From: Candidatus Parcubacteria bacterium
GTDB taxonomy: Bacteria; Patescibacteriota; Minisyncoccia; Phycocordibacterales; UBA5272
Length of the DNA: 64,000 nt
Assembly: GCA_039796775.1 (NCBI GenBank)
Contig: JBDKJD010000004.1
Span: forward strand, 6,103-70,102
Direction of reading: 5' to 3'
The notes beneath the pieces were generated by a model. The model saw only the letters and a program-made list of their open reading frames with translations, was not told the origin of the DNA and did not search any database. The translations under genes and the position numbers were made by a program. Shown in pieces: positions 4,662 through 58,240 of this stretch. Each line of letters begins with the position of its first letter. The stretch's first letter is position 1.

Positions 4662-5069
4662 TCACACGAACACTGAAATACGTTTACTTTTGAGGTGATG
4701 TAAATCACTATACGCGTCTGCTTCGATAACCTTATCGACCAACGTTCCACTTTGCTCATTGATAATCGTGTTCTGCAAAAGACGAGCAAAGCGATTGTTG
4801 GGATTATTCCAACCCCACATGAGATGGTGAGTACCATTTTCTTGGTTTTCTTTCATGAGAAGAAAAACTTTGTCTCTTTGTCCTTTGCGAGAACGAGAAA
4901 GTCTGAGCAATCCAAGCTTTTGAAGCTTACTTTCTTCTTCGAGATCAAAACAAAGCTTGCGCCCTGCGATTGTGACTAAGATGCAACCTTTGCGTTTTTG
5001 GTGTAGAGCAACGTGAGTAACATACCCCCAAACGGAGGTATATGGTGAATACTTCATGATTTTCTCCAA
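4662..5069 (-). CDS. hypothetical protein
   Basis: 135-aa ORF, no recognisable motif. Confidence 0.35.
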   Translation of the reverse strand: MEKIMKYSPYTSVWGYVTHVALHQKRKGCILVTIAGRKLCFDLEEESKLQKLGLLRLSRSRKGQRDKVFLLMKENQENGTHHLMWGWNNPNNRFARLLQNTIINEQSGTLVDKVIEADAYSDLHHLKSKRISVFV

Positions 5070-5161
5070 TATGAGTGAACTGAACTATCTCTATCCTCTA
5101 CCTTTTTGAGCGCATTGTCAACTTGGGGGAATAGTAAAGGGGTTATTTAATAGAGAAATAG

Positions 5162-6007
5162 TTATTCTGGTATAGAAAACATTCTCTTCACATTCTCTAA
5201 CACCTGTATACGCATCGTCTCCATATCTTCGTTTCTGAGCACTGCCATACGAGCAACCACTTCTTGCACTTTAAGTGAATCATTTCTCTCCCCTCTGAAT
5301 GGAGCAGGTGTCGCATATGGGCTATCTGTCTCTGCAATAATCATAGTTGGGGGTAAAAATCTGACAACATCATCGTAATCTTTGGTAAACGTAATAACTC
5401 CGGAGAAGCTCATAGTGAATCCAATCTCAATAAACCGCTTAGCTATGTCGATGTCTCCTACAAAAAAATGTGCATTGCCTCGCAATTTAGTCCCGTACTT
5501 TTTCTTGGCGCCTTCAAGCATAAAAAGCATGTCTTCATACGCATCCATCGTGCCTTTACTTGGTCTACCGTGGAGCATGAGGGGTAAGTTAAGTTCTACA
5601 GCAAGATGTATCTGCTCTTCAAAAATTCTCTTCTGTCTGTCTGCTTCAGCGTCTTTATTCCAAGATAAGCCCTTCTCTTTCTTATCTCTATCAAAAAATG
5701 TCTCAACATAGTGGTAATCGAGTCCACATTCCCCTATTGCGACAACCTTTTTACTCTTAGCTAAGTCGCGATAAAACCCTGCATCAAATTCCTCCGTGAC
5801 ATTGTCTGCTGGATGATGCCCGACACTTGCGAAAACATGCTCACACTTCTCAGCTAAAGCAACCGCTTTTGTACTCTCTTCTTTATCTGTACCAACGGTT
5901 ATAGCCCCAACACCATAGGACTTCATAGAAGCGAGCACCTGGTCTCTATCTTCATCATACTTTCTGTCATGGAGATGCGCATGGGCATCAAAGAGAGCGT
6001 AGTTCAT
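5162..6007 (-). CDS. tatD: TatD-family metal-dependent hydrolase/DNase
   Basis: N-terminal FDAHAHL, internal GECGLDYH and later His/Asp ligands typical of TatD amidohydrolase fold. Confidence 0.85.
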   Translation of the reverse strand: MNYALFDAHAHLHDRKYDEDRDQVLASMKSYGVGAITVGTDKEESTKAVALAEKCEHVFASVGHHPADNVTEEFDAGFYRDLAKSKKVVAIGECGLDYHYVETFFDRDKKEKGLSWNKDAEADRQKRIFEEQIHLAVELNLPLMLHGRPSKGTMDAYEDMLFMLEGAKKKYGTKLRGNAHFFVGDIDIAKRFIEIGFTMSFSGVITFTKDYDDVVRFLPPTMIIAETDSPYATPAPFRGERNDSLKVQEVVARMAVLRNEDMETMRIQVLENVKRMFSIPE

Positions 6008-6050
6008 GGGGGGGGTAGTTATTAGTGGTTAGTGGTTAGTGGTTAGAAAT
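6008..6050 (-). promoter_or_regulatory. tandem-heptamer leader element upstream of tatD
   Basis: sense CTAACCA CTAACCA CTAACCA CTAATAA CTACCCCCCC-ATG. Confidence 0.5.
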
Positions 6051-6150
6051 AAGTATACATCATACTCATTAGGTGCAATCGGTGACATCTTCTTAGATAA
6101 AAGAAAACAGCTCATATGGGAGCTGTTTTTGGGGACAGATTTTTCATCTG

Positions 6151-6704
6151 TTACTTGATAGGGGTTGGAGACTTCGTGCCTGATCTTACCATACTAAGCT
6201 CTAGCCGTGTCTCCATCAGAAGTTTACCTAAATGATTCTGTCCCTGACGAGAAGAGTCTGGATATACGGCGACACCAAAAAAGGCATCTCCCCACCAATT
6301 CGTTTCTTCTAGATGTTTCCCTACTGTTGACAGGAGAAAATCTCCAAGTTTTGGGTTGCCATAAATTTTGACCAAAGAATTTGTTTCATGACGGACAATT
6401 TACGCTCCTCCCACTCCTCTTCTGTATATGCCCACAGATGTCGCTTTTGGCCCAAAGTTTTGGCTTGTTTTGGAGACACAAAAACAAACTGAGATCGCAA
6501 ATATCTTTGATCTTGTTGAACGGTTGAAAACTTGGCAGCTTGATAGGCATTCTCGCTTGATGGGTAAATCACACCCTCAAAGACAACTTGGCATGGCCAC
6601 ATGTTGGAAAGTGGTCTATATTCGCCAAAAAATCCTCCTATTTTTGTCGCGCTGATTTCTTGAATCAATTGCGCTTTCTTGCTAAGAGAAAGTTGAGCAT
6701 TCAT
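6151..6704 (-). pseudogene. NADAR (YbiA/DUF1768-like N-glycosidase) domain gene split by a frameshift into two overlapping ORFs
   Basis: ORF 6321..6704 carries NADAR N-terminal half (GEYRPLSNMWPC..YPSSENAYQAAKF), ORF 6151..6375 carries the C-terminal half (ETNWWGDAFFGVAVY...GQNHLGKLLMETR); frames overlap 6321-6375. Confidence 0.55.
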
Positions 6705-6773
6705 GGTAACACTCCTTCAAAGATCAACTAAACAAAGAACCATAATGAATCCTAATAGTAACTTATAGATAAA

Positions 6774-8198
6774 TCAAAGTCTGCCGAACAACGGAGATTC
6801 TGGCATCTTGTTTTCACGAATACATTCTAAAATCTTCGCTGAAGTTCGTGGCATGAATGACACTAATTCACACACAATAACATCAAGCTCTGAGAGACAA
6901 TGATAGAGCATTTCTTTTCCTTTTACTTCGTCGACTTTTATAACCTTAAAAGGTTCATTAGAAGCAATATATTCATCAAGTGTACGCATACGATTCATTA
7001 CTTGTTTTAAAGCTAGATTCATATCATGATTATCTTCTATGAGTGTTACCATCTTTGGCTGACCGAGAGTCACACCATTTGTTGTAACCATTTTCATCAC
7101 GCGACTTGTTAAATTACCAATGCCATTTACTAGATGAGCTGTGTATGAAGCTCGTATTGAATCGATAGTAATGTCTCCATCTTCAAATGAAGGTATCTCA
7201 TGAAGAAGCACAAAGCGAAGCGCTTCCCCGGCCAAATCACCGCACACGGGACGAAACATTTCTATTACTTCATTCGGATCTATCACATTACCGAGTGATT
7301 TACTCATCTTCTGTCCTCCTGATGTGATATGCCCGTGAACGAGTATTTTCTTTGGAAGAGCCAAGCCTGCTGAGAGAAGCATTCCTGGCCAAATAGCCGC
7401 ATGGAAACGAAGAATATCCTTGCCGATAATATGAGTAGTGTTACTCCATCTCTCATTATCAAATGACTCGGTGCCATACCCGATCGCTGTAATATAGTTA
7501 GAGAGTGCGTCACACCATACATACATGACATGCTCTTCATCTCCTGGAACTGGTATACCCCAACCAATCTTAGACCTCGGTCGAGAGAAAGAAACCTTTT
7601 CTAACCCTCTATCAATAAATGCCAGAATTTCGTTCTCACGACTCTTCGGGAATACCTGCATCTCACCGCTCACCATAGCTTCTTTTATTCTGGTTGTATA
7701 CTTTGGTAAATCAAAAAAATAATTCTCTTCTTCGACTTCTTCTGGAGCCTTGAGATGCGCTTGACACTCTCCCTTTTCATTAAGATCTGAATCTTTTTTG
7801 AACTCTTCACATCCTACACAATAGAGAGCTTTGTATTTTTCTTTTGTTATGTCGCCATTTTCTACGAGCTTATTCCATATCGCTTGCGCACCTTTGTAAT
7901 GTTTCTCTTTGTCACTTGTGCGTACAAAATAATCAGGTATAACTGAAAGCTCTTTGTCGAGTGACTTAAAAGCTTCTGCATAAGCATCTACGAAGTCTTG
8001 CACGTCTATTCCTTTTTCTTTAGCTTTCTCTTGTATCTTCTGACCATGCTCATCCATTCCTGTAATGAAAAAAGTGTCTCCTTGTTGTCTAGAATATCTC
8101 GCAAGAGTATCAGCCATGACGAATTCAAAAGCATGCCCTATATGAGGAGCACCGTTTGCATACGCAATTGCTGTGGTGATTAATGTTTTATTCGACAT
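6774..8198 (-). CDS. metG: methionyl-tRNA synthetase (short form)
   Basis: HIGH motif (APHIGHAFE), KMSKS motif, MetRS Zn-knuckle region; likely start MSNKTLITT at 8198 (ORF track extends artificially to 8297 into neighbour). Confidence 0.9.
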   Translation of the reverse strand: MSNKTLITTAIAYANGAPHIGHAFEFVMADTLARYSRQQGDTFFITGMDEHGQKIQEKAKEKGIDVQDFVDAYAEAFKSLDKELSVIPDYFVRTSDKEKHYKGAQAIWNKLVENGDITKEKYKALYCVGCEEFKKDSDLNEKGECQAHLKAPEEVEEENYFFDLPKYTTRIKEAMVSGEMQVFPKSRENEILAFIDRGLEKVSFSRPRSKIGWGIPVPGDEEHVMYVWCDALSNYITAIGYGTESFDNERWSNTTHIIGKDILRFHAAIWPGMLLSAGLALPKKILVHGHITSGGQKMSKSLGNVIDPNEVIEMFRPVCGDLAGEALRFVLLHEIPSFEDGDITIDSIRASYTAHLVNGIGNLTSRVMKMVTTNGVTLGQPKMVTLIEDNHDMNLALKQVMNRMRTLDEYIASNEPFKVIKVDEVKGKEMLYHCLSELDVIVCELVSFMPRTSAKILECIRENKMPESPLFGRL

Positions 8199-9234
8199 GA
8201 TCTTTTTTCTTCCTAACATCGTCAGCAAGTTCCATGAAGATGGCAGCCACAGGGACCGCGAGAAGTACCCCCCAAATACCTGCAAGCTTAGCTCCAACCA
8301 AAAGTGCGATAATCACCACAATAGAAGGAACACCGACTAATTTGTTCATCACCTTTGGATAGAGAACATGGTTTTCAAGTTGACCAATAATAAGATACAC
8401 AATTGCAACAATTCCTAAAAGGGACGCTCCTCCGTGCATCCACGCAATAAAAAGTGCCGGAATGGTAGCGAGTGATAATCCAACTACAGGAATAAGTTCT
8501 CCAAAAAAAGCAAACATAGCTAGGAGTGCAGCATAGGGCACGTCGAGAATTTTGAGTGGAATGTAAACAAGGAGGGCGACTATACATGAAAGTAGTAATT
8601 GGCCTTGCATCCACATGCCGATTTTATTTTGAGTTCTTACCCAAAGGTCTGTAATGTATTCTTCTTTTCTCTTAGGTACGATGAGGCGTAGGAACTTCTG
8701 AACACCGTTTTCTTCAAGAGCTAAGTAAAAGGCCAAAATAAAAGTAAGAGCAACATTAACCAACCCTCCAAGGAGAGACGCAGTGGTTGCGAACACTCCA
8801 CTTGATCCAAAGAATGTATTCTTGAGCACTGTTAATATTTGACCTTTTGATATATCTCTTCCTAACTCTTGAACAGCCAAAGATAAATCTCTGAATCCCA
8901 TATCTCTTCCAAAAATTCTTATCGAGTCAAGAAGTGAAGGGAGTGTCTTAATAAATTTAGCTACATCATCAGCCAAAGGGGGCAGTAATACAAACACAAC
9001 GAGTGCCATGACTGAGATAATGGCTATAAATATTGCTCCAACTGAGACACCTCTAGGAATAGAGTGTCGCGATAGGAATTTTACCGGCACTTCAATCGCT
9101 GAAGCCAAAATAATCGCCACCAAGATAACAATCACTAGTTCACTCAAGTAGAACAAAGTAAAAAGAAGTATAAGAAACAGTATGGTTCTTATAATTGACC
9201 CGCTAGAGATAGAAATTGTAATAGATTCTTTCAT
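8188..9234 (-). CDS. AI-2E family transporter (PerM/UPF0118)
   Basis: 348-aa, ~8 TM helices with the AI-2E/UPF0118 topology and conserved Gly/Pro-rich TM segments. Confidence 0.75.
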   Translation of the reverse strand: MKESITISISSGSIIRTILFLILLFTLFYLSELVIVILVAIILASAIEVPVKFLSRHSIPRGVSVGAIFIAIISVMALVVFVLLPPLADDVAKFIKTLPSLLDSIRIFGRDMGFRDLSLAVQELGRDISKGQILTVLKNTFFGSSGVFATTASLLGGLVNVALTFILAFYLALEENGVQKFLRLIVPKRKEEYITDLWVRTQNKIGMWMQGQLLLSCIVALLVYIPLKILDVPYAALLAMFAFFGELIPVVGLSLATIPALFIAWMHGGASLLGIVAIVYLIIGQLENHVLYPKVMNKLVGVPSIVVIIALLVGAKLAGIWGVLLAVPVAAIFMELADDVRKKKDHVE

Positions 9235-9263: not shown

Positions 9264-11120
9264 TTATTCTGTTACAAGAGAGGGGTTGGTTGGCCAATTT
9301 TCTCCTTTGATAAAGGTGGTGATCGGATCAAATGTAATCTTAATACGATTCTTAGATAATACTTCGTCAGCCTCTAAGACAATTGCTGATGTGATAGCAG
9401 GAGAGGTGCCTCTTTGACTAAGAGAAGGTTTGACTGCGAGACTCACCTCACCTGTTTTGGTTTCTCCACCATTAAGAGCTCCGGCATTAAAAGAAACAGT
9501 TCTTGTTCTAGCGTCATAAGAAAATGATTGACCGCTGCCATACACGTCTCTCCATGAAACATAAAAAGGAAGCGTGAAAGAAACTTTAGCATTCTTAATC
9601 GCATTTTGTGCACTAATAGAGAGCGAGACTGTGTAGGTTGTTTGATTATTAGCAACCGGTGGTATTGGACCTGTGTTGTTGAGTGACCCGTTTGCATATG
9701 AAGTTCTAGCTTCGAGTGAAGCACTTCCTTTGATCGCATATGTTTTAGAAAACACATTAGTCACATCAGAATCAGAAACATCAAGAGCTTCAGAGACTAA
9801 GGAGAGTGAAAGCGTTGGTGAGTTGAAGCCACTCGTGACAGTAGGCATACTCACCACAAGTGTTCCCTGACCTCCTGGTGGAAGAATTCTAAGATCAGGG
9901 AGTAACGAAGCATCCCATGTGATGGTTTTCTTTTGTGAATCATAATAACCTTTGTTTGGGGCAACATCATTGTAGATAATAGCGTCACCGTCAAGCGCTA
10001 GTCGTAATACTACATTCTCAAGAGGTTTTGATCCTGCATTCTTGTAACTAATAACCACTGTCACTCTATCGGCGTAGGTAATAGACTCGTCTCCTCCTAT
10101 TGTAGAAGAGAGGGAGAATTGAGTATCGAGTGGCGACTTTCTGAGTGTGACATCTTTGACCGTTGAAGAGTAAACAATGCCAAGCACTTTGTTGGAGTCA
10201 CTTTGTGAACCTAGTTTTGAAACAATAGAAGCAACCTCTCCTACTCTTCCCTTGAAAAATCCCTTCACAAAAAAACTATACTTTTCACCCTTCTTGATTG
10301 AAGGGATTTCCCATGAAGTAGTGCGTGGAAGTGGTGGACGCTCTTCGCTTGCCTTTTCAAAGGATTGAGGGAATGTGACGAGTAACACACTTTTAGGTGA
10401 TGATGTTGATGAATTATTCTCGACCGTGAATATAAACGTTCCTTCTTGTCCAACCGAGAGTACTTCTGGTCCTTTGACTGAGACAGAGACGGGTGGCGTC
10501 TCTATGATTACGTCCGTGGTTACGATTTTGTTAAACGTCGCATTAGATCCTGGTACTTTATATTCCAACTTCACTGTTATATCTCTACTCTCCCCTTCTC
10601 TACCATAAAGACTAAGAGAGAAGTCTTGTCGCTTGAACTCGTCTTTGGCAACAGCTCCGACCGGTCTCTTTTCTTGTATCTTCTCTTGTTCATCTTCAGA
10701 TGACGACCCCTGTTTGTACAATAATGTCAGAGTCACATCTTCAAGTGTCACCTTGTTGTTATTACGAAGTGTAACAACAAGCGGTACAGTATCCCCTCCT
10801 TCGACAAAAGGAGTTATCTCAAGCGTTGTATCTATGTTGGCTGCAGATACTACATTTTGAAGAGAGATAACTCTATATGCAGTAAAAAGAAGCACGAGAA
10901 GCAAAGTAATAAGGGAGAACAAAAAGAACATTAACCCAAAAGAAAATTTCTTATCTTCTTTTTTGACGAGAATAGGACCATCTTCTCCCCAGGATGTTGG
11001 GAGATCGACATTCTTGGTGGACTTCACCCGATGAATATCGGCATTAAAATCTTTATTTTTTGGATCATAGAGCTCATGCTCTATTCTATCAAGAGGGCTT
11101 ATAGTGTTATCTTTTTCCAT
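9264..11120 (-). CDS. large membrane-anchored Ser/Thr/Val-rich surface protein with repeated beta-rich domains
   Basis: 618-aa; N-terminal TM anchor (FFLFSLITLLLVLLF) followed by repetitive T/S/V-rich segments. Confidence 0.5.
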   Translation of the reverse strand: MEKDNTISPLDRIEHELYDPKNKDFNADIHRVKSTKNVDLPTSWGEDGPILVKKEDKKFSFGLMFFLFSLITLLLVLLFTAYRVISLQNVVSAANIDTTLEITPFVEGGDTVPLVVTLRNNNKVTLEDVTLTLLYKQGSSSEDEQEKIQEKRPVGAVAKDEFKRQDFSLSLYGREGESRDITVKLEYKVPGSNATFNKIVTTDVIIETPPVSVSVKGPEVLSVGQEGTFIFTVENNSSTSSPKSVLLVTFPQSFEKASEERPPLPRTTSWEIPSIKKGEKYSFFVKGFFKGRVGEVASIVSKLGSQSDSNKVLGIVYSSTVKDVTLRKSPLDTQFSLSSTIGGDESITYADRVTVVISYKNAGSKPLENVVLRLALDGDAIIYNDVAPNKGYYDSQKKTITWDASLLPDLRILPPGGQGTLVVSMPTVTSGFNSPTLSLSLVSEALDVSDSDVTNVFSKTYAIKGSASLEARTSYANGSLNNTGPIPPVANNQTTYTVSLSISAQNAIKNAKVSFTLPFYVSWRDVYGSGQSFSYDARTRTVSFNAGALNGGETKTGEVSLAVKPSLSQRGTSPAITSAIVLEADEVLSKNRIKITFDPITTFIKGENWPTNPSLVTE

Positions 11121-18892: not shown

Positions 18893-20518
18893 TTAATCTG
18901 CAAGAAGGGAAAGTTTGGCCTGAGTTGCCATCTCTCCAGCAAGCCGAGTGAGTTCAGCATCCTCCTTTGTGTCCACGAACCTCATTGCTGCCGCAATCCT
19001 CGGATATACCGAAGCGAACTTCTCATGCATTGTGAGAGTTACCCTGCGGTAACCAGGATGGCCTTCTGGCATGCTCCTGATTTCGTGAAGGTGGAAAGAT
19101 TCACGCGTGTTAACCGCTTCACGCCACCGCATACGGTGCCCGAGCAGGGTGGTGTACTGCGACTCCTGTTCGAACCCTTGCCTTTTAACTTCACCATACA
19201 ACTTTTCCGCGATATCGAACGCCTCAACGAACGGCTTTTCTAGTCCGGCCTCAATCACAACAGGCGGAATCTCGTAGCCGAGGAACGGCGTAAGATCCTG
19301 CCAGTCCATGCCGTCTACTGGGCGATGGCGCTGTAGGTCACGAAAAATCCCATAGTCCGTCACGTTTTCCCACTTGGTTTGTAGGAATTCGAACGAACGT
19401 CCTGGGCGATGGCGCCGGTTGTACCGGGTTCCAATTCCTGCTTGAAGGACTCTCACGAGTTGCTCCTGACTGAGGTTTTGGGCTTGCCGCATGACACTTT
19501 CGTAGCTTTGATCAGAACCTGTCCACAACAAGTCCGCGACAACAGACATCTCATCCTGAGGCCAGTGATTAACCAGGTTGACTTCGACACCAGGGGCAAT
19601 GATCTCTTCCGGAGATAGGTATTCCTTAGCAAGGACACGAACATCCTGCCGGATTTGTCGACGATAATTGATTGCTGCGCCACCGCGTTCAGGGATATCC
19701 GTGCGCTCAAAAAACTGAGGAGCTATGACACGAACTTGTTGGAGAAGCTTCTTCCCGAGCTCGTTGGCTTCCAGGAGATCAAGCGACGCAAGTCGCATGA
19801 TGAGATAGTCAAACGACTGCGCATTGCCGACAATGCCGACTGTCGAAGTCGTCGCAACAGGAAGCATGTTACGTGCCGCATCACATGCTTGGGCGCGGGT
19901 GGCACCCATCCATGCGACTCTTTCCCTTTTTTCTTCTGAAGGATCCGACAAAGAAAAGGGTGACTTCTTTCTGATGTACCCCGAAAGCTCCCGCACCACT
20001 TCTGAGTAGAGTGCGAAAATGCGGTCCATATCCGTGCGATACCTGTTGAGAAGCGTTTCTGGAAAATTCATCGGCACATAGTACCGATACACCAGCTTGC
20101 CGTCCTTGTCGTAAACCTGCACATCAAAGTAGATGTAACGGGTCGACTGTTCAAGGTAGGCAGCGAACCGCCCCCTTTCCAGGAACTTGGTCATGATGTT
20201 AGAGCATTGTTCGACGACGACCGAAAGCGGCATGAGCTGCTGCACCGAGTCGTCACCGTAGCCTGTAATCACACGCTTGAAGAGCCCGTTCAAGACATCA
20301 CCAGATTTACCGGCGAACTCTTTCAGGATCACCATCCGCATGTCGTCCCCCGTGCGGGAGAGACGAGCCATGGCGCCGGCGATCATCAAGGGTTCGGCTT
20401 CGCGAGAGAAGGCATACACCTACCCTTGCGGATCAGTCGTGATCTTGGCCAGATAATTCAAGCCAAATTCGGTAGGAACAGCAATGCTGCCCTCCATGCG
20501 AAAATACTCTTGTTCCAT
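18893..20518 (-). CDS. thyX: ThyX (Thy1, flavin-dependent thymidylate synthase)-like protein with two tandem ThyX-like domains; GC-rich; interrupted by one in-frame TAG (20420-20422)
   Basis: ATG 20518 with GAAAGGAAAT RBS; MEQEYFRMEGSIAVPTEFGLNYLAKITTDPQG-TAG-VYAFSREAEPLMIAGAMARLS..; ARNMLPVATTST...N.QSFDYLIMRL and second-half RHRPVDG / RMRWREAVNTRESFHLHEIRS resemble ThyX motifs; ~50 % GC vs ~36 % flanks. Confidence 0.55.
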
Positions 20519-50496: not shown

Positions 50497-50550
50497 TTTA
50501 AAACCACAAGATTCTTTTTCGTGGTTTTAAATGCATATGCGGGCCATATG
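50497..50550. other. 20-bp-stem perfect palindrome GCATATGCATTTAAAACCAC-loop-GTGGTTTTAAATGCATATGC immediately outside right IR
   Basis: seen directly. Confidence 0.6.
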
Positions 50551-50649
50551 AGTTAAGTACCCACTAGCTCAAGCATCACAAGGATGTTTTAGTGTCTTTT
50601 CCAGACTCTAAAATATGTATGTGGGTCGCTATTACCTTAAGACAAAATA

Positions 50650-51321
50650 CTACATTCCTACAATCTGTATCACTAATACTGCAATCTTTTTCTTGTCTTC
50701 ATCAGACAGAGAAACCTTAGAACCTTCTAGTCTAAAATTAAAATAATCGTCACTAATAAGATATGCACCTATGAATTCAGTCATGTCTTCTAAGGTATTC
50801 ATACTAAGCAGGCCAGTATCTCTGTTTTGTCTATGATATACATTCATATCTGCCAACCCGTTACAAACACCTTTAGTGTTGAGAAATGCATATAACTCTA
50901 GGTATGGGTGAAACTTTTCATCAATCTCATTTGAACCATTCAAGAAGTTAACAAGAGCTTGTTCATATCCTGTTTGATTTTGAAAAACATGAGCAGATTC
51001 ATGAGCCAATTTGATGAGAAGCTGTTCCTTAGCATTATCAACTCCCCAACCAAAACTATCTACACTTTCCCTGCGAAATGGCATAGCGCCGAGAGATATT
51101 TGAGAAGATCCGTCTTCAAGTCTCTTTGCGCTTGATTCAGGACTCGCTTCATTAACTACAAGAGTAGCGTTTACCCTGGAAAGAATTTTACCAACTCGTA
51201 AAGAATTTCTACTATTTTCATCTAGTAACACCTGATCCATAATTGAAGAAAGTCCAGAAAATAATCTTCTTGGCGCAGATTCTTGAGTTTCAGTATTACT
51301 TTTTGATTCTGGTCCTTTCAT
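50650..51321 (-). CDS. DUF4157-like HExxH domain protein (putative zinc metallopeptidase/toxin-associated domain)
   Basis: LAHESAHVFQNQTG resembles DUF4157 signature AHExxHVxQQ. Confidence 0.4.
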   Translation of the reverse strand: MKGPESKSNTETQESAPRRLFSGLSSIMDQVLLDENSRNSLRVGKILSRVNATLVVNEASPESSAKRLEDGSSQISLGAMPFRRESVDSFGWGVDNAKEQLLIKLAHESAHVFQNQTGYEQALVNFLNGSNEIDEKFHPYLELYAFLNTKGVCNGLADMNVYHRQNRDTGLLSMNTLEDMTEFIGAYLISDDYFNFRLEGSKVSLSDEDKKKIAVLVIQIVGM

Positions 51322-51457
51322 AAATTATGTATCTAGGTCGCTCCGATACTTTATTCTTATGGCGGAGAGTGTGGGTTAAGTACCCACACGTCTAGACCCC
51401 ATAAAGGTATTTTATCATCTTCTCCAAACTTTGAAATATGTATGTAGGCCGCTATGG

Positions 51458-52114: not shown

Positions 52115-53074
52115 TTATTTCTTATTGTTTACTTTAAAATATAAGACCTTTTGTTCATACAGTGGTTTAAATATCCCATTTTCATATACAAACCTTGTTT
52201 TCATATACCCAGGAGGACAACATAACCCTGTATCCCACTCTTCCCCTTCTGAAGGAACCCAATGCATATAAAAACCATTATCGCTATCATTCTTAGTAAT
52301 ATCTAACCCTGTAAGTCCCGCATCTGCTGTAAAGATAATTTTATTACCTTTAACTACAATGATTTGATGAGGGCAATGATTACCACCTGTTCCACATAAT
52401 GATATTATAGTTTCATTTTTACCGTCTCCATCTACATCAAACTTTTCAAGCCCTACGATTGTATAACCTTCAGGAATAAAACGATAAGCAAGATCACCAT
52501 ATTCTTTTATTTGATCTTTGTATAACCAATCCCATTCAACCTTTCCATCACTACCAACCTTAAAAATTTCTTTATTTGATTTTACTAATGGTAAATCTTT
52601 AATTTCATTTGAATAATCTTTACTTGATAAAGTTATATCTTTAGTTGGAAAAGATTGATACCCTGTATCTAAAACGGCATAATCCATTTTATTCTTATCC
52701 TCTGGATCACCAGAACCCCAAGCGATATCTTTATCAGAAAAATATTTTAATGGCATACTCATTTCTGGAATTGTTCCAACAACACCAAAAGGAGATTCTT
52801 CACAATTAAATTCTCTTAAGAGTCTTACCCTTTCACTACTGATTTCTTCCTGAGTTGCGTTTGGATGATCTTTTAAGTATGTACTAGACCATTCAGCAAC
52901 AGACATTACATACTCTTCTGAGGAAGAAAATTTATCCGGGCACTTAAAAAATAAATTTTTATCAAATTTATAATAGTAGAACACTGAAAATAAAAACACA
53001 CCTAAAATCAAAAGGAAAAACCATAGAATATACTTTATTATTTGTTTTGATTTTATAATAATAGAAAATTTCAT
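52115..53074 (-). CDS. hypothetical membrane-anchored protein
   Basis: N-terminal TM (YILWFFLLILGVFLFSVFYYY), 319 aa, Cys-containing. Confidence 0.4.
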   Translation of the reverse strand: MKFSIIIKSKQIIKYILWFFLLILGVFLFSVFYYYKFDKNLFFKCPDKFSSSEEYVMSVAEWSSTYLKDHPNATQEEISSERVRLLREFNCEESPFGVVGTIPEMSMPLKYFSDKDIAWGSGDPEDKNKMDYAVLDTGYQSFPTKDITLSSKDYSNEIKDLPLVKSNKEIFKVGSDGKVEWDWLYKDQIKEYGDLAYRFIPEGYTIVGLEKFDVDGDGKNETIISLCGTGGNHCPHQIIVVKGNKIIFTADAGLTGLDITKNDSDNGFYMHWVPSEGEEWDTGLCCPPGYMKTRFVYENGIFKPLYEQKVLYFKVNNKK

Positions 53075-53084
53075 TTATTGATAA

Positions 53085-54011
53085 CTACTCTCTATATGAA
53101 TAAATATCTACCTGGTCATTACCATTTTTACAGAAAGCCTTAACAGAGTAACCACTTCTTGTTCCAACATTTCCAAATATTTCCATATAAGGAATATTTC
53201 CATTTCCATCTGCCCAAGTCCAAATACAAGTATCATAATTTTTTTGAATTTTGTACGGACTACTATTATCAGATCTTTCAATTAAATCCCAATATTTATT
53301 AACTTTTAGATTTGGGTCTATATATACATATCCAAAATCTGAAACACAAAATGAACTACCAGTCTTTGCCCTAATACTATTGATGTTATTAGTTATAACG
53401 TCACCAGAATTCATTTCAATACATGAAATAGAATTACCTTCTGCTGTTACGTCTCTGTATAAAGGAAGGTCTTGCCTTTGTTTTGAGCTATATTTCAAAT
53501 CACAAATTTTTACATCGTGTTCAGTAACACATTTCTCTGAGCTATATTTAACTCTACTTTTTTCATAGACGACATCAGATTGTTTTTTTAAATCAATACC
53601 CCTAGAATCATTTGAATTTGCATACACAGCAAAAGCCCACTGTTCTGAAGTACAGTTACCAGGATAACATCTATAGGCCATAGCAACATTATGACGGTCG
53701 TACCAAGCGTATTGATCGCAACTACTTTGATTACACCCAATATTATCCATTGGAAATATATCGTCCCTAGTCTCAGGTTTCTGGTTATAATCTAAAACCT
53801 GAGAACTATTGCTAGTTTTTGTATAGATATTTACTTGAGTATCCTGTTTGTCACTCTTCAAATAAAAATATCCAACAATAAGAACTACACCAACAATACC
53901 AATAAGCAAGAGTCTAATTCCCCATCCTATAAAAAACCCTAATAATGCCTGACCTGGTTCACTTATAAGTAAAACCCCTATAGCTATTATGATTAGCAGA
54001 AAAATTACCAT
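53085..54011 (-). CDS. hypothetical membrane-anchored Cys-rich protein
   Basis: two N-terminal TM segments then Cys-rich ectodomain, 308 aa. Confidence 0.4.
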   Translation of the reverse strand: MVIFLLIIIAIGVLLISEPGQALLGFFIGWGIRLLLIGIVGVVLIVGYFYLKSDKQDTQVNIYTKTSNSSQVLDYNQKPETRDDIFPMDNIGCNQSSCDQYAWYDRHNVAMAYRCYPGNCTSEQWAFAVYANSNDSRGIDLKKQSDVVYEKSRVKYSSEKCVTEHDVKICDLKYSSKQRQDLPLYRDVTAEGNSISCIEMNSGDVITNNINSIRAKTGSSFCVSDFGYVYIDPNLKVNKYWDLIERSDNSSPYKIQKNYDTCIWTWADGNGNIPYMEIFGNVGTRSGYSVKAFCKNGNDQVDIYSYRE

Positions 54012-54142: not shown

Positions 54143-55468
54143 ATGGAACAACAAGAAACATATGGACTAATGGGTAATATGACAATAGCTCCAGTACAAA
54201 AAATGAAGTATGTTTTGTACTCAAGAAAAAGTACGGAATCAGAAGAAAGACAAATTCTTTCTATTGATTCTCAGATTAAGGAAATGCTTAGATTAGCAGA
54301 AAGAGAAAATCTTGAAATAATAGATATTAGAAGAGAGTCTCATTCAGCAAAAGATTCAGGCCAAAGACCTGTATTTAAAGAAATATTAGAGGATATTAAA
54401 CGAGGTAGGTTTAATGGAATACTTGCATGGGATGCTTCTAGAATTAGCAGAAATGCAGGTGATCTAGGCTCTATTGTAGACCTTATGGATCAACAATTAC
54501 TTTTTCAAATACGAACCTATGGACAAACATTTTCAAATTCACCAAATGAAAAGTTTCTCTTGATGATTTTATGTTCTCAAGCAAAATTAGAAAATGACAA
54601 CAAAAGTGTAAATGTTAAGCGAGGATTGCGAACAAGAGTCGAAATGGGTTTATGGCCATGTCCTGCCCCTACTGGATATTTAAAAGAAAATAGAATGGAC
54701 AGAAAATGTCAAACACTTATAGACCCAGACAGAGGACATATTATTAAACAAGTTTTTGAGAAAGTTGCTTACGATAAATGGAGCGGTTTAAAAGTCTATC
54801 ACTGGTTAAAGTTTGATATGAATTTTAAAACAGCAGCAGGTCACAAAAATCTATCATTAGGCAATATTAATCTAATTCTAAAGAATACTTTTTACTACGG
54901 TGAATTTGAATATCCTCGTGGTAGTGGTAACTGGTACAAAGGAAGTCATAAACCATTAATCACTAAAGAACTCTTTGATCTTGTTCAGTCGCAATTATCT
55001 AGACAGGTAACAAGAACTGAATTTAACAGTAAAGAATTTGCTTTTACTAAACTTATGACATGTGGCTTATGTGGATCAGGAATATGTGCTGATGAAAAAA
55101 TAAAGAAGCAGAAAAATGGTAATGTTCACAGATATGTATACTATGGCTGTACTAAAGCCAAAGACAAGAATTGTAAATGTGGTTATACCAACGAAGAAGA
55201 TCTTATAAAACAGTTCCAGGAACTGCTAGATAAAATTGACTTAGACGAGATAGGAATGAAAGAAAAGATACGAACAGAGGTTGAAAGAATTAAGAGCTTT
55301 CAAAAGAGTGTTTTGGGAGATACACGACAAATTAAAATTAAAGATGTCGATATACGAAACTACGCTAAGTATATTTTGAAAGATGGGAAAGATCTAGAAA
55401 AACGAGAATTATTAGGTTGTTTTAAGAGTAAGATTTTATTGAATAATAAACAAATTAGTTTGATTTAA
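54143..55468 (+). CDS. large serine recombinase (resolvase domain + recombinase domain + zinc-ribbon)
   Basis: YSRKSTESEERQILSIDSQ catalytic-Ser region, recombinase domain, C-terminal CGLCGSG...YYGC zinc ribbon and coiled coil. Confidence 0.8.
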   Translation: MEQQETYGLMGNMTIAPVQKMKYVLYSRKSTESEERQILSIDSQIKEMLRLAERENLEIIDIRRESHSAKDSGQRPVFKEILEDIKRGRFNGILAWDASRISRNAGDLGSIVDLMDQQLLFQIRTYGQTFSNSPNEKFLLMILCSQAKLENDNKSVNVKRGLRTRVEMGLWPCPAPTGYLKENRMDRKCQTLIDPDRGHIIKQVFEKVAYDKWSGLKVYHWLKFDMNFKTAAGHKNLSLGNINLILKNTFYYGEFEYPRGSGNWYKGSHKPLITKELFDLVQSQLSRQVTRTEFNSKEFAFTKLMTCGLCGSGICADEKIKKQKNGNVHRYVYYGCTKAKDKNCKCGYTNEEDLIKQFQELLDKIDLDEIGMKEKIRTEVERIKSFQKSVLGDTRQIKIKDVDIRNYAKYILKDGKDLEKRELLGCFKSKILLNNKQISLI

Positions 55469-56232
55469 AAAGCACACACTGGTATAGGAATATTCATTTT
55501 AAGAATATCTTTAACTATTTCCATTTGATTTTGTCTCTTTTCCCAAAGAGGGTCCCCAGGACTTTCATTTAACGAAATTGTTATCATTGAAACGAGATCT
55601 CTGTGTTCAGCCAAAGCATTGAAAACGAATTTTAATAAATCTTCTTCTTGTAGATCTTTTGGATCATCTCCAGAAAAACCTTCTTCTTTGAAATCAAAAA
55701 AATCTAAATCAATATCTATTACACATTTACCGTTACTTTGCTTTATGCAATCTACTAACCCATAAATATCTGCCAGCTTTTTAAAAAAATGGAAATCTTT
55801 TTCTGGTAACCCAGTATGCCAGTCACCAGTTGAAGAATATATATAATAATGATTGAATACCTTTGCTTTTACGGCAAGATGTACAAAATTATCATATGTT
55901 ATACAAGGTCTCGTTTCTTTTCCTGTCCAAGGATCCCGAAAAGGACATTGCAAACTTTCATAAGTATTAAAATCTTTCAAGTTATCAAAAACGGAGAGAG
56001 CTTGTTCTAGGCACTCTGGCTCACCTAACCCTTCCCATCTACGAGCATCTGTGTGTTCATCTATGTGTATAAGATTGTGTTGTTTATCGGAAATGTTTTC
56101 ACATTGCAACCAACACCATAAAGCCAATCTATGGTTTGCCATTACATAGATATTATCCTCATTCCAAAGAAAAGTATTTTCATAAACCCGTGCGTATTGT
56201 TTTTTACTAGGTTCGATAATAAAAGGTGACAT
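55465..56232 (-). CDS. hypothetical protein with HxDxHxD motif (HIDEHTD) and IDIDLDFF segment; possibly UPF0489-like metal-dependent hydrolase
   Basis: 255-aa ORF immediately downstream (17-nt gap) of the AbiEii-like gene, same strand. Confidence 0.35.
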   Translation of the reverse strand: MSPFIIEPSKKQYARVYENTFLWNEDNIYVMANHRLALWCWLQCENISDKQHNLIHIDEHTDARRWEGLGEPECLEQALSVFDNLKDFNTYESLQCPFRDPWTGKETRPCITYDNFVHLAVKAKVFNHYYIYSSTGDWHTGLPEKDFHFFKKLADIYGLVDCIKQSNGKCVIDIDLDFFDFKEEGFSGDDPKDLQEEDLLKFVFNALAEHRDLVSMITISLNESPGDPLWEKRQNQMEIVKDILKMNIPIPVCAF

Positions 56233-56249
56233 ATGTTTTGTTTAATCAA

Positions 56250-57695
56250 TTAATATTTAGTATCAACATAATAACCATGACGACCATAGCAATTATTCCC
56301 AAATTTATCTTTGTGTGGATTTAATTTTCCATCTTGTTTTGATTTGGTAAACTTTTTATTACAATAACTACATTCGTATATATATTTTGTACTTGAAAAA
56401 CCACCAAATCTCTTAACTCTTGTAATTATCCTAGCTGGTGACTTTGCTGGTTTGTTTGGGTCAAAAAAGTAAGGCTTTTCTGGTTTTTCCCCAGACTTAC
56501 AAAGTTCAATCTGATATTTGGGATCAAATGTTTCTTCAGTGTTTTCTACTGACACCATTCTATCGGCTCTAAAAATTTTAATACTAGGAGAACTAAAACC
56601 ACCTCTTAATTTATAAGCGTATAAATATTCAAATTCAGTACCATCTTCTTTTCTCATATATTTTATTGAATACGGTTCAACAAAACGTTCTTCGCTAATG
56701 CCTTTTTCATTTCTATATTTAATTTTTATCACCTTCTGATCTCTCCCAGCTTTCATAATGGGCACTCTAAAATCTGGAGAAAAATAAATGGACGAGCGGT
56801 AACCGTTATCTGGATAAATTTTGAATAGATTTTCTAAATCTTCTAAAAAGAAAGTTATAGCATCTTCTATATCCAACAAAAATTCTTTAGAACATATGAC
56901 ACTTTTACCCCAAAACTCTCTAAAGTAGTCGAATGGTGTTTTAAGTAATATATCCTTAAGGTTATTAGGGTTTTTCCTAAAAATAGTTTTTTGTATTAAA
57001 ACTTCTACAACTTCTTCTTTATTTAGAGATCCTCCAAGTAATTTAATAGAATAAACGTAATCAAATAAATCGGGAGCATGTTGTCTTTGTAGTAAACATT
57101 TTAGTTTTGTTGCTACAATTTCTTCTAATTTCATACACGAAATTTCACACTGAAGATCGCCACTATCTGAATATGGATGAATTAGTTTAACTTTTTGAAT
57201 TGGTAATATTACTTTATCAAAACGTGTTATGTCCATTGATATTTTAATTTTTATAATATCTGGGTTACCATAAAAATCCTTAAAATAAAGTTTTGCCTCA
57301 TAAACCTTTAAGCCAGTTACAGGTTCTTGTCCTTCTTTAAATTTATCCTTTACCTTGTTGTCATCTTTTGTAAAAACAACACCATTTTTTTCCTGAATAA
57401 AATCACAAACTTTATTAAGTTCTTGAAGTAAAAAATCTGGGTCAACATCATTATGAATACCAAAATCAAGATCGTTCGAATAACGAGTATTTTCAAAATA
57501 TCCTTTTCGTAAAGCATTACCTCCTTTTAAAAAGAAAATATCTTTTAAATTACTAGCAGTAAAAATACCAAATAAAACCCAACCAAAAACATAATCCTTT
57601 TCTACGTGTGTGGGGTTTATTTCAAAATATTTAGCCTTTTCCTCTATTTCTTTCTTATCTATCATAGATAACTTAATTACAACATAAATAACCAT
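56250..57695 (-). CDS. AbiEii/DUF1814-family nucleotidyltransferase (abortive-infection/type IV TA toxin-like) with C-terminal Cys/His-containing extension
   Basis: EKDYVFGWVLFGIF...FLKGGNALRKGYFENTRYSNDLDFGI matches AbiEii N-terminal signature (LKGGTAL..R.SEDLDF); 481 aa. Confidence 0.6.
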   Translation of the reverse strand: MVIYVVIKLSMIDKKEIEEKAKYFEINPTHVEKDYVFGWVLFGIFTASNLKDIFFLKGGNALRKGYFENTRYSNDLDFGIHNDVDPDFLLQELNKVCDFIQEKNGVVFTKDDNKVKDKFKEGQEPVTGLKVYEAKLYFKDFYGNPDIIKIKISMDITRFDKVILPIQKVKLIHPYSDSGDLQCEISCMKLEEIVATKLKCLLQRQHAPDLFDYVYSIKLLGGSLNKEEVVEVLIQKTIFRKNPNNLKDILLKTPFDYFREFWGKSVICSKEFLLDIEDAITFFLEDLENLFKIYPDNGYRSSIYFSPDFRVPIMKAGRDQKVIKIKYRNEKGISEERFVEPYSIKYMRKEDGTEFEYLYAYKLRGGFSSPSIKIFRADRMVSVENTEETFDPKYQIELCKSGEKPEKPYFFDPNKPAKSPARIITRVKRFGGFSSTKYIYECSYCNKKFTKSKQDGKLNPHKDKFGNNCYGRHGYYVDTKY

Positions 57696-57720
57696 TGAAT
57701 ACTAGAATTTTGAAAAATAA

Positions 57721-57747
57721 AAACCATCATAATTGATGGTTTTTATT
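57721..57747. terminator. perfect hairpin AAAAACCATCA-TAAT-TGATGGTTTTT between tRNA-Ser and AbiEii-like gene
   Basis: seen directly. Confidence 0.55.
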
Positions 57748-57793
57748 TTCATTTAGTTTTCTATGCTCCTCGAGCACCAGAACCTAAACGACT

Positions 57794-57884
57794 TGGCGGA
57801 GGAGGTGAGATTCGAACTCACGGTCCGGTTACCCAGACTCTTGTTTTCAAGACAAGTGCAATAGACCAACTCTGCCACTCCTCC
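57794..57884 (-). tRNA. tRNA-Ser (UGA) with encoded CCA
   Basis: acceptor GGAGGAG/CTCCTCC, anticodon loop CTTGAAA, long variable arm, T-arm GTGAG-TTCGAAT-CTCAC, discriminator G + CCA. Confidence 0.8.
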
Positions 57885-58095: not shown

Positions 58096-58098
58096 CAG

Positions 58099-58140
58099 AA
58101 TATAAAATACCCATCTAACAAAGTGATGGGTATTTTATAT
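58099..58140 (+). terminator. 17-bp perfect hairpin AATATAAAATACCCATC..GATGGGTATTTTATATT after tRNA-Arg
   Basis: seen directly. Confidence 0.5.
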
Positions 58141-58240
58141 TCTGCAGTATTAGATGTACGACACCTACGTGTCGCACATCAGGAATCGAATGGGGGGGTC
58201 GCGGAACTTTATCGACGAACACAGTGAGGAGAAGCTCTGT

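Follow-up and report, generated by a model that had tools for sequence, protein, structure and literature searches.

Unrelated cargo on a tRNA-adjacent serine recombinase island of a Parcubacteria genome: an AbiEi-less AbiEii-WYL-zinc-finger nucleotidyltransferase and a UPF0489 hydrolase that are probably stacked rather than partnered

Our analyses concern a 64,000-nucleotide (nt) stretch of contig JBDKJD010000004.1 (assembly GCA_039796775.1, positions 6,103 to 70,102) from Candidatus Parcubacteria bacterium, hereafter the window, in which a gene for a nucleotidyltransferase (NTase) of the AbiEii/DUF1814 family is followed by a gene for a UPF0489 metallohydrolase. We consider it likely that the interval from 52.0 to 57.8 kb is a small (~5.7 kb) integrative island, lying just 3' of a tRNA-Ser gene and defined by a large serine recombinase, and that its NTase and hydrolase are unrelated passengers stacked in one slot rather than the components of a two-gene system. 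The initial annotation, which had proposed the pair as an undescribed AbiE variant with the hydrolase in place of AbiEi, was correct in the coordinates of both open reading frames (ORFs), which lie on the minus strand, and in reporting the 17-nt gap between them (the NTase stop lies at 56250 and the hydrolase start at 56232, on the same strand and with no terminator between). The pairing itself fails, because the two families do not occur together at any other locus examined. The absence of AbiEi, which had also been noticed, is real, holds across the NTase family and is independent of UPF0489, and the WYL and zinc-finger tail of the NTase constitutes a more informative non-canonical feature than the hydrolase partner.

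Recurrence of the pair was assessed from both sides. None of the 68 genome loci with AbiEii-WYL homologues contained a UPF0489 relative, as searched by tblastn in flanks of up to 8 kb on each side, and AbiEii was absent from all 33 metagenome loci encoding UPF0489 relatives, among which three (L070, L072 and L073, in our numbering of homologous loci; 42-54% identical) had 2-3.5 kb of upstream sequence. It was likewise missing wherever one of six closer homologues of UPF0489 (48-78% identity) is encoded; in all, nine loci with UPF0489 relatives beyond these 33 were free of it. In the two closest NTase homologues (78% identical at L107 and 76% at L108), a 3-nt gap leads to a 183-amino-acid (aa) protein without Pfam match, in the position that UPF0489 holds here. 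Under the same kind of search, at least 1,179 NTase homologues and 36 of UPF0489 were retrieved. These observations bear on the proposal that AbiEii and UPF0489 form a dedicated toxin-partner or nucleotide-modifying defence module, in which the hydrolase would act as antitoxin, reset enzyme or co-effector. The co-orientation of the genes, their close spacing without an intervening terminator, the lack of AbiEi and the location of both on a mobile island speak for such a module, and the regulation of AbiEii by reversible covalent modification makes an enzyme partner conceivable. However, the two families are found apart at every other locus examined, the closest AbiEii homologues have other genes in the corresponding position, the families differ greatly in the number of matches, and the arginase fold recovered by Foldseek is neither a phosphatase nor a nucleotide-hydrolase fold, which together render a dedicated module very improbable. 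Co-transcription of the two genes would probably result only from their stacking in the slot.

The recombinase next door, which had also been recognised in the initial annotation and combines Resolvase, Recombinase and Zn_ribbon_recom domains, has orthologues of 55-79% identity at 13 distinct loci elsewhere, in each case next to a homologue of AbiEii or of UPF0489. These orthologues were found near NTase homologues at L108 (79%) and at L009, L010, L028, L046, L048, L049 and L051 (55-63%), and near hydrolase homologues at L103/L104 (72%), L113 (71%), L071 (57%) and L115/L116 (56%). In the window, tRNA-Ser, NTase and UPF0489 follow one another in a single direction and converge on the recombinase, the stops of UPF0489 and the recombinase overlapping by 4 nt. 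Convergent arrangements with other contents were observed at L051 (tRNA-Ser, NTase, recombinase, with a 4-nt overlap), L049 (NTase and recombinase, with a 4-nt overlap), L108 (NTase, 76%, then proteins of 183, 50 and 232 aa and the recombinase, 79%), L113 (tRNA-Trp, UPF0489, PIF1 helicase and the recombinase, 71%) and L115/L116 (UPF0489 and an overlapping recombinase, 56%). L103 is likewise an island with a recombinase (72%) and UPF0489 (69%), and the UPF0489 loci L070, L072 and L102 also start just downstream of a tRNA gene. The simplest reading is that the recombinase represents a conserved backbone gene of an element family, in which the interval from the tRNA-side end to the 3' end of the recombinase gene serves as a variable cargo slot.

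The window island has in common with known tRNA-adjacent serine recombinase islands and prophages the three-domain recombinase, the tRNA adjacency, the compositional shift and the accessory genes between attachment site and recombinase. Larger relatives of the element, with genes for ParB/methyltransferase, helix-turn-helix (HTH), Prim-Pol, LysM and protease proteins, have the appearance of prophages or bigger integrative elements. In contrast to these larger relatives (L009, L028, L051, L103 and L106), the window island spans only ~5.7 kb and five genes, lacks replication, packaging and ParB-methylase genes, and has ends that are tentative.

Several of the homologous loci displayed further features. 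L113 contains, at 9597-11042, reverse-transcriptase fragments (RVT_1) and a bAvd gene beside the orthologous recombinase (71%) and the UPF0489 homologue, an indication that the element also carries a diversity-generating retroelement. In L103, a co-oriented run at 5030-8759, comprising a Peptidase_S24 repressor, a 69-aa protein, a 275-aa protein, a PycTM-domain protein and a 263-aa protein followed by UPF0489 (69%), shares the island with the orthologous recombinase (72%) and a methyltransferase, and may represent a Pycsar-like defence context. In L051, the tRNA-Ser at 2317-2406, immediately upstream of an AbiEii homologue, was called with the unusual anticodon ACT, a second tRNA-Ser lying 2.2 kb off; integration could have left the former as a hybrid or duplicated end of a tRNA. 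Upstream of the closest AbiEii homologue (78%, L107), an 89-aa ORF at 680-949 matches only the C-terminal third of the recombinase, at 39% identity, and looks like a decayed recombinase remnant; the same contig carries tRNA-Arg(GCG) and rpsT, as does the window.

The island is also apparent from its composition. A composition scan gave a guanine-cytosine (GC) content of 0.30-0.32 over 52-58 kb, as compared with a window average of ~0.40, and the low-GC block consists of five genes, encoding proteins of 319 and 308 aa, the serine recombinase, the UPF0489 hydrolase and the NTase (Table 1). The products of the first two had no significant Pfam match and no relative in any homologous locus retrieved. 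AbiEi had been reported missing in the initial annotation, and indeed no match to the AbiEi family was found when the five island proteins were scanned against Pfam, the region upstream of the NTase gene being occupied by the tRNA-Ser and by a hairpin that is terminator-like on either strand. Only tRNAs were recovered by an Rfam scan of the window. A candidate att-like imperfect direct repeat (16 of 20 positions matching) is the top 20-mer match between the intergenic regions at both boundaries; since its score was equalled in 19 of 1000 shuffles, the repeat is suggestive of the island ends but not proof.

Table 1. Features of the island, domains of its NTase protein and a Rhizobium locus used for comparison (window coordinates unless an accession is given).
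Feature	Coordinates	Strand	Evidence and remarks
Candidate att-like repeat, left copy, ATGCATCTCGAGCACTGGAA	52020..52039	.	Left edge of low-GC segment
319-aa gene	52115..53074	-	ORF translation; hydrophobic N-terminal stretch reading like a membrane anchor; in low-GC segment
308-aa gene	53085..54011	-	ORF translation; hydrophobic N-terminal stretch reading like a membrane anchor; in low-GC segment
Large serine recombinase, 441 aa	54143..55468	+	Resolvase PF00239 2.1e-18, Recombinase PF07508 2.1e-11, Zn_ribbon_recom PF13408 6.8e-7
UPF0489 arginase-fold metallohydrolase, 255 aa	55465..56232	-	PF12640, invariant motifs, AlphaFold2 (AF2), Foldseek
AbiEii-WYL-zinc-finger protein, 471 aa from M11 (481-aa ORF extends to 57695)	56250..57665	-	Pfam, PADLOC, alignment, AF2, Foldseek
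C2HC zinc-finger-like tail, aa 436-481	56253..56390	-	Invariant C442, C445, H461, C469; weak C2H2 profile matches
WYL domain, aa 313-389, predicted beta-barrel after a helix	56529..56759	-	PF13280, PADLOC, AF2 strands 321-389, Foldseek
DUF1814/AbiEii (MenT-like) NTase domain, aa 11-300	56796..57665	-	PF08843, invariant columns, Foldseek, profile match
Perfect 16-bp hairpin, 4-nt loop, A/T runs on both sides	57714..57749	.	Between tRNA-Ser and AbiEii gene
Candidate att-like repeat, right copy, ATGCTCCTCGAGCACCAGAA	57763..57782	.	11 nt from tRNA-Ser 3' end
tRNA-Ser (anticodon UGA)	57794..57884	-	ARAGORN; Rfam tRNA 60.9 bits; island immediately 3' of it
Rhizobium AbiEi + AbiEii-WYL-zinc-finger example (L118)	NZ_CP121654.1 230581-232783		WP_283054705/706

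The 255-aa neighbour of the NTase, described in the initial annotation as a possibly UPF0489-like metal-dependent hydrolase, is confirmed as such by its match to PF12640 (35.1 bits, cut-off 27) and by an arginase fold. Foldseek placed the peptide arginase OspR (8BRP) first, followed by arginases, agmatinases and formiminoglutamases, the TM-score to OspR being only ~0.45 and the AF2 model having a predicted local distance difference test (pLDDT) score of 90. Invariant in 23 homologues are H34, D58-x-H60-x-D62 and D173-I-D175-L-D177. The protein thus shares with the peptide arginases OspR, BipC and FlmR/OhkR the family, the fold and the DxHxD and DIDLD manganese-binding motifs; BipC, itself a UPF0489 member, has been experimentally shown to be a Mn-dependent peptide arginase with EEHxE, DxHxD and DIDLD motifs (PMC12707348). 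Unlike in these enzymes, the first motif EEHxE reads ANHRL in the window protein, with the His alone conserved, whereas DEHTD and DIDLD are present and invariant, and the NCBIfam peptide-arginase model NF052474 (FlmR/OhkR) is matched at 21.6 bits, below its cut-off of 350. The context differs as well, mobile-element genes being the neighbours of UPF0489 in the window and in the homologous loci examined, where no precursor or biosynthetic genes of ribosomally synthesised and post-translationally modified peptides were found beside it. The protein is most likely a hydrolase, probably Mn-dependent, that would remove guanidino groups from a peptide, a protein or a small molecule, in a role presumably of benefit to the element.

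A closer tie of UPF0489 to the serine recombinase, for instance as an accessory or excision directionality factor, would account for the presence of an orthologous recombinase within a few kb in 6 of the 9 informative UPF0489 loci and for the convergent, overlapping layout that both genes show in the window as in L115/L116. Large serine recombinases have diverse directionality factors, which can resemble enzymes (Bxb1 gp47). Yet most of the orthologous recombinases seen here have no UPF0489 nearby (L009, L010, L028, L046, L048, L049, L051 and L108), UPF0489 lies more than 6 kb from the recombinase in L103 and L106, and its intact metal site points to catalysis, all of which makes an accessory function improbable. 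UPF0489 is most likely independent cargo, a passenger that these recombinase elements carry repeatedly and that acts apart from the NTase.

The NTase protein comprises an N-terminal DUF1814/AbiEii domain, a WYL domain, a disordered linker and a zinc-finger-like tail. All 20 aligned homologues begin at the position of M11, and the true start is therefore probably 57665 rather than 57695. The AbiEii/DUF1814 signature motifs quoted in the initial annotation are present, and the protein matched PF08843 (E 3.5e-25, residues 40-248) as well as 29 AbiEii models of PADLOC (best 3.9e-48), together with two WYL models (1.4e-7). Residues G58, G59, R71, S73, D75, D77, D155, K197, K199, R204, D209 and D212 are invariant in an alignment of 21 sequences; around four of them the window protein reads R71-Y-S73-N-D75-L-D77. 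Against the Protein Data Bank (PDB), Foldseek ranked MenT3/TglT Rv1045 at the top (E ~1e-7), followed by the WYL regulators PafBC, CapW, DriD and BrxR, and the family profile matched MenT4 (6Y56) over its GG...RFSxDLDF motif. Searching the PDB by sequence with the NTase domain alone gave nothing useful, whereas profile and fold searches succeeded. Loss of the phosphoacceptor, as considered from the GGN motif (N60, where canonical AbiEii reads GGT/S), was rejected: the equivalent residue is retained, because MenT3 S78 (R76-x-S78-K79, just before DxD) corresponds to the invariant S73.

The C-terminal extension of ~180 aa with Cys/His pairs is likewise real, and it resolves into a WYL domain, a linker and a C2HC tail that had gone unrecognised. 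PF13280 (WYL) was matched over residues 313-384 at 25.2 bits (cut-off 21.8), while the tail profile gave weak matches to C2H2 zinc fingers (E 0.03). No (winged) HTH DNA-binding domain was matched in the protein by Pfam, its N-terminus being the NTase domain. The AF2 model consists of an alpha/beta NTase domain with a helical bundle, a helix, a beta-barrel (321-389), the disordered linker and a small beta tail. Separating the WYL domain from the zinc-finger tail, the linker (aa 395-433; pLDDT <50) contains a conserved motif, PE.PY.FDP..P (window 56403-56486, aa 404-431), which is invariant in the AbiEi-less clade of ~60% identity and absent from both the AbiEi-paired Rhizobium clade and a clade of 37-39% identity; PE.PY.FDP might serve as a docking or auto-inhibitory peptide.

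The NTase family is large and widely distributed. Of at least 1,179 significant homologues, the best 120 cover the full length and for the most part share 58-65% identity with the query, and family members at ~60% identity occur on large contigs or chromosomes of Patescibacteria, Deltaproteobacteria, Chitinophagaceae, Gammaproteobacteria and many other groups, one further member being found on a short contig binned as a Methanosarcinales archaeon. Mean column identity reaches 73% across 21 homologues from different phyla. On the basis of these sequence comparisons, the distribution points to a wide horizontal spread under strong constraint. Neither the NTase nor the UPF0489 family was found in IMG/VR viral contigs, and a single weak partial match was obtained in sequenced phages.

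No shared partner emerged from the neighbourhoods of the NTase homologues. The immediate upstream gene is co-oriented and close in ~35 of 59 homologous loci, and among these 35 neighbours no Pfam family was encountered more than three times (DUF6804 three times; HsdM, YhcG nuclease, racemase, Vut_1, ThiF, RelA_SpoT, PLD, CoiA, M48 peptidase and others singly). Likewise, no Pfam family occurred more than five times among 148 further neighbours, the commonest being serine recombinases and tyrosine integrases. The variable upstream gene was rejected as a partner or antitoxin, since it belongs to unrelated families that include a housekeeping-type racemase, a vitamin transporter and ThiF. PADLOC detected components of Shedu, type I restriction-modification, MADS, PARIS, Septu, AbiL and DISARM among the neighbours, and the NTase is in defence-island company. 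When a genuine AbiEi was used as a phmmer query, the sole relative lay at L068, which is an unrelated AbiE locus of canonical type; no AbiEi or MenA antitoxin was found in the window or in 67 homologous loci.

Plasmid searches recovered solo NTase copies of 37-39% identity in Sinorhizobium and Sphingomonas, together with a Rhizobium plasmid clade of 28-30% identity in which the same three-part toxin, with AbiEii domain, WYL domain and CxxC...H...C tail, is overlapped upstream by a canonical AbiEi (PF09407 and PF13338; Table 1). Apart from their low identity and overlapping AbiEi, these Rhizobium operons differ from the window gene in lacking the linker motif. Because the Rhizobium clade has both the tail and AbiEi, the tail predates the loss of AbiEi, and the window clade derives from a known architecture and lacks AbiEi. 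One might regard the locus as a decayed AbiE system that has lost AbiEi and whose leftover toxin gene no longer works or is degenerating into a pseudogene, as AbiEi is missing here and is kept by a distant clade of the same architecture. However, the ORF is intact, the catalytic residues and zinc ligands are invariant, column identity is high and hundreds of full-length AbiEi-less homologues exist. We infer purifying selection on a functional gene from these features, and decay is hardly credible.

No fusion of the WYL and zinc-finger module to other effectors was established in a search of 1.84 billion representatives, most of the proteins recovered being AbiEii, either full length or truncated, alongside some WYL and zinc-finger proteins of ~230-270 aa. 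In the latter (P0177, P0242, P0254, P0255, P0288 and P0299), an N-terminal region of 70-120 aa without Pfam match precedes a WYL domain and a zinc-finger-like tail, which are related to the C-terminal module of the NTase. These short proteins may be stand-alone modules or gene fragments.

Comparison with known systems suggests how the NTase could act. MenT toxins modify tRNAs by adding nucleotides at the 3'-CCA end and prevent their aminoacylation, AbiEii is an NTase with a preference for UTP that shuts down translation, and antitoxin-induced auto-phosphorylation at MenT3 S78 or AbiEii T65, beside the DxD motif, neutralises the toxin (PMC11375011; bioRxiv 10.64898/2026.01.19.700257). The window protein resembles AbiE and MenAT toxins in its N-terminal ~290 aa, which form a DUF1814/AbiEii domain with the GG...R-x-S-x-D-x-D, K and R motifs, in its MenT3/TglT fold and in having S73 at the position of MenT3 S78, and differs from them in lacking an AbiEi or MenA antitoxin, in not being bicistronic and in bearing the WYL and C2HC extension. 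A WYL domain fused to an AbiGII-like nucleotidyltransferase (DUF1814) is listed among the architectures in a passage of Makarova et al. 2014, where WYL is taken to sense a ligand or nucleic acid and to regulate an enzyme of abortive infection; that passage is silent on the zinc finger, on the lack of AbiEi and on the setting in recombinase islands (PMC4012209). The NTase of the window is thus an uncharacterised AbiEi-less variant of the AbiEii family with a previously noted domain fusion. According to the descriptions of the Foldseek matches, the WYL domains of PafBC, DriD, BrxR and CapW are sensors, that of DriD of single-stranded DNA; the window protein shares this Sm-like beta-barrel with them but has an NTase where WYL proteins of the typical transcription-factor type have an N-terminal HTH.

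Since R71-x-S73-x-D75-x-D77 and the other catalytic residues are kept, the same chemistry as in MenT and AbiEii would be expected, and since no antitoxin gene was found in hundreds of loci, control of the enzyme would be intrinsic or host-supplied. The most economical model, still a tentative one, is that of a MenT-like NTase held by its tail and released by an infection ligand, a mechanism that we rate as possible and somewhat short of likely. Under this model, the NTase would add nucleotides to tRNA 3'-CCA ends, as MenT and AbiEii do, and translation would stop. The C-terminal tail of WYL domain, linker and zinc finger would keep the NTase inactive, either by occlusion or by promoting auto-phosphorylation of S73, until it bound an infection cue such as single-stranded nucleic acid and freed the enzyme, following the logic of CapRel. 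In CapRel, a single polypeptide reportedly combines an N-terminal enzyme that blocks tRNA 3' ends with a C-terminal zinc-finger-like module that both auto-inhibits the enzyme and senses a phage cue. The likeness of the window protein to such CapRel-type fused toxin-antitoxin immunity proteins (PMC9712102) lies in the proposed logic only, for the catalytic fold is toxSAS/RelA-SpoT in CapRel and DUF1814 here, and the sensor is a pseudo-ZFD there and WYL plus C2HC here.

More speculatively, and with rather more doubt, the whole AbiEi-less clade could be viewed as a single-polypeptide abortive-infection sensor-effector, a DUF1814 counterpart of CapRel, in which the clade-specific, acidic linker motif would possibly act in cis like the AbiEi loop. 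The trigger would then be a phage-derived single-stranded nucleic acid or a phage protein, and the clade would have spread over bacterial phyla and genomes of the candidate phyla radiation (CPR) on serine-recombinase islands.

Several points weigh against these interpretations. The tRNA target, the toxicity, the autoinhibition in cis, the defence role and the substrate of the hydrolase are all things that we infer, whereas the domain identities, the compositional island, the linkage of recombinase and tRNA and the absence of co-occurrence are observations. The neighbourhood surveys were made with pattern-seeded searches and our own greedy ORF calls, and the tables of neighbours give the 25 commonest families, so that a rare AbiEi could be missed. 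The att-like repeat is no more than suggestive of the island ends, and the AF2 model of the NTase protein is of moderate confidence (pLDDT 71, predicted template modelling score 0.62). As to the two genes, their 17-nt spacing without a terminator may allow co-expression and hence, judging from the layout, a local functional interaction. As to the tail, its coexistence with AbiEi in the Rhizobium clade makes an origin as a replacement of AbiEi less likely, and the tail may instead be a substrate-binding or recruiting module, or a trigger-sensing one, rather than an inhibitor. Finally, an identity of ~60% across many phyla, and in one archaeal metagenome-assembled genome, is unusually high for a defence gene.

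This degree of conservation is also the main attraction of a reading in which the AbiEii-WYL-zinc-finger protein serves the mobile element, as an RNA- or DNA-end-modifying or regulatory factor in its maintenance, transfer or control, and is neither a toxin nor a defence protein. The gene often adjoins recombinases or integrases and survives without an antitoxin, and WYL domains are normally regulatory sensors. Such a factor is nevertheless unlikely, although less so than the other alternatives considered above: no recombinase lies within 8 kb at many loci, where the neighbours are ordinary chromosomal or defence genes, all catalytic residues of the toxin family are kept, a related clade resides in a canonical AbiE toxin-antitoxin operon, and viral contigs and sequenced phages contain next to nothing of the family, as described above.

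Other features of the window lie outside the island. Just beyond its left edge, an 84-nt direct repeat (73% identical; 50549-50632 and 51372-51455) flanks the gene 50650..51321. The segment 49000-50500 has a GC content of ~0.50 in a background of ~0.38. Its ORFs are all short and overlap one another on both strands, and Rfam gave no match there; a foreign insert, a decayed gene and a structured RNA missed by annotation are possible explanations. A local GC peak of 0.53 at 19000-20000 falls within a 508-aa ORF (18893..20419, minus strand). A perfect 20-bp inverted repeat with a 9-nt loop (58096-58144) directly follows tRNA-Arg(GCG), the tRNA pair separating it from the island.

Our results indicate that two genes lying close together in one orientation on a mobile island can amount to no more than stacked cargo. 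They also document a family of serine-recombinase islands that target tRNA genes and have an exchangeable cargo slot, in CPR/Patescibacteria, a group whose mobile elements and defence have been poorly described. Few defence systems are more abundant than AbiE, whose toxins, according to the current view, are controlled through auto-phosphorylation induced by the antitoxin. A large, strongly conserved, antitoxin-free clade that combines a phosphoacceptor-equivalent Ser with a domain of nucleic-acid-sensor type offers a direct test of whether such control is built into the toxin itself, for which the Rhizobium plasmid loci provide a natural comparison, within one family, of the state with and without an antitoxin.

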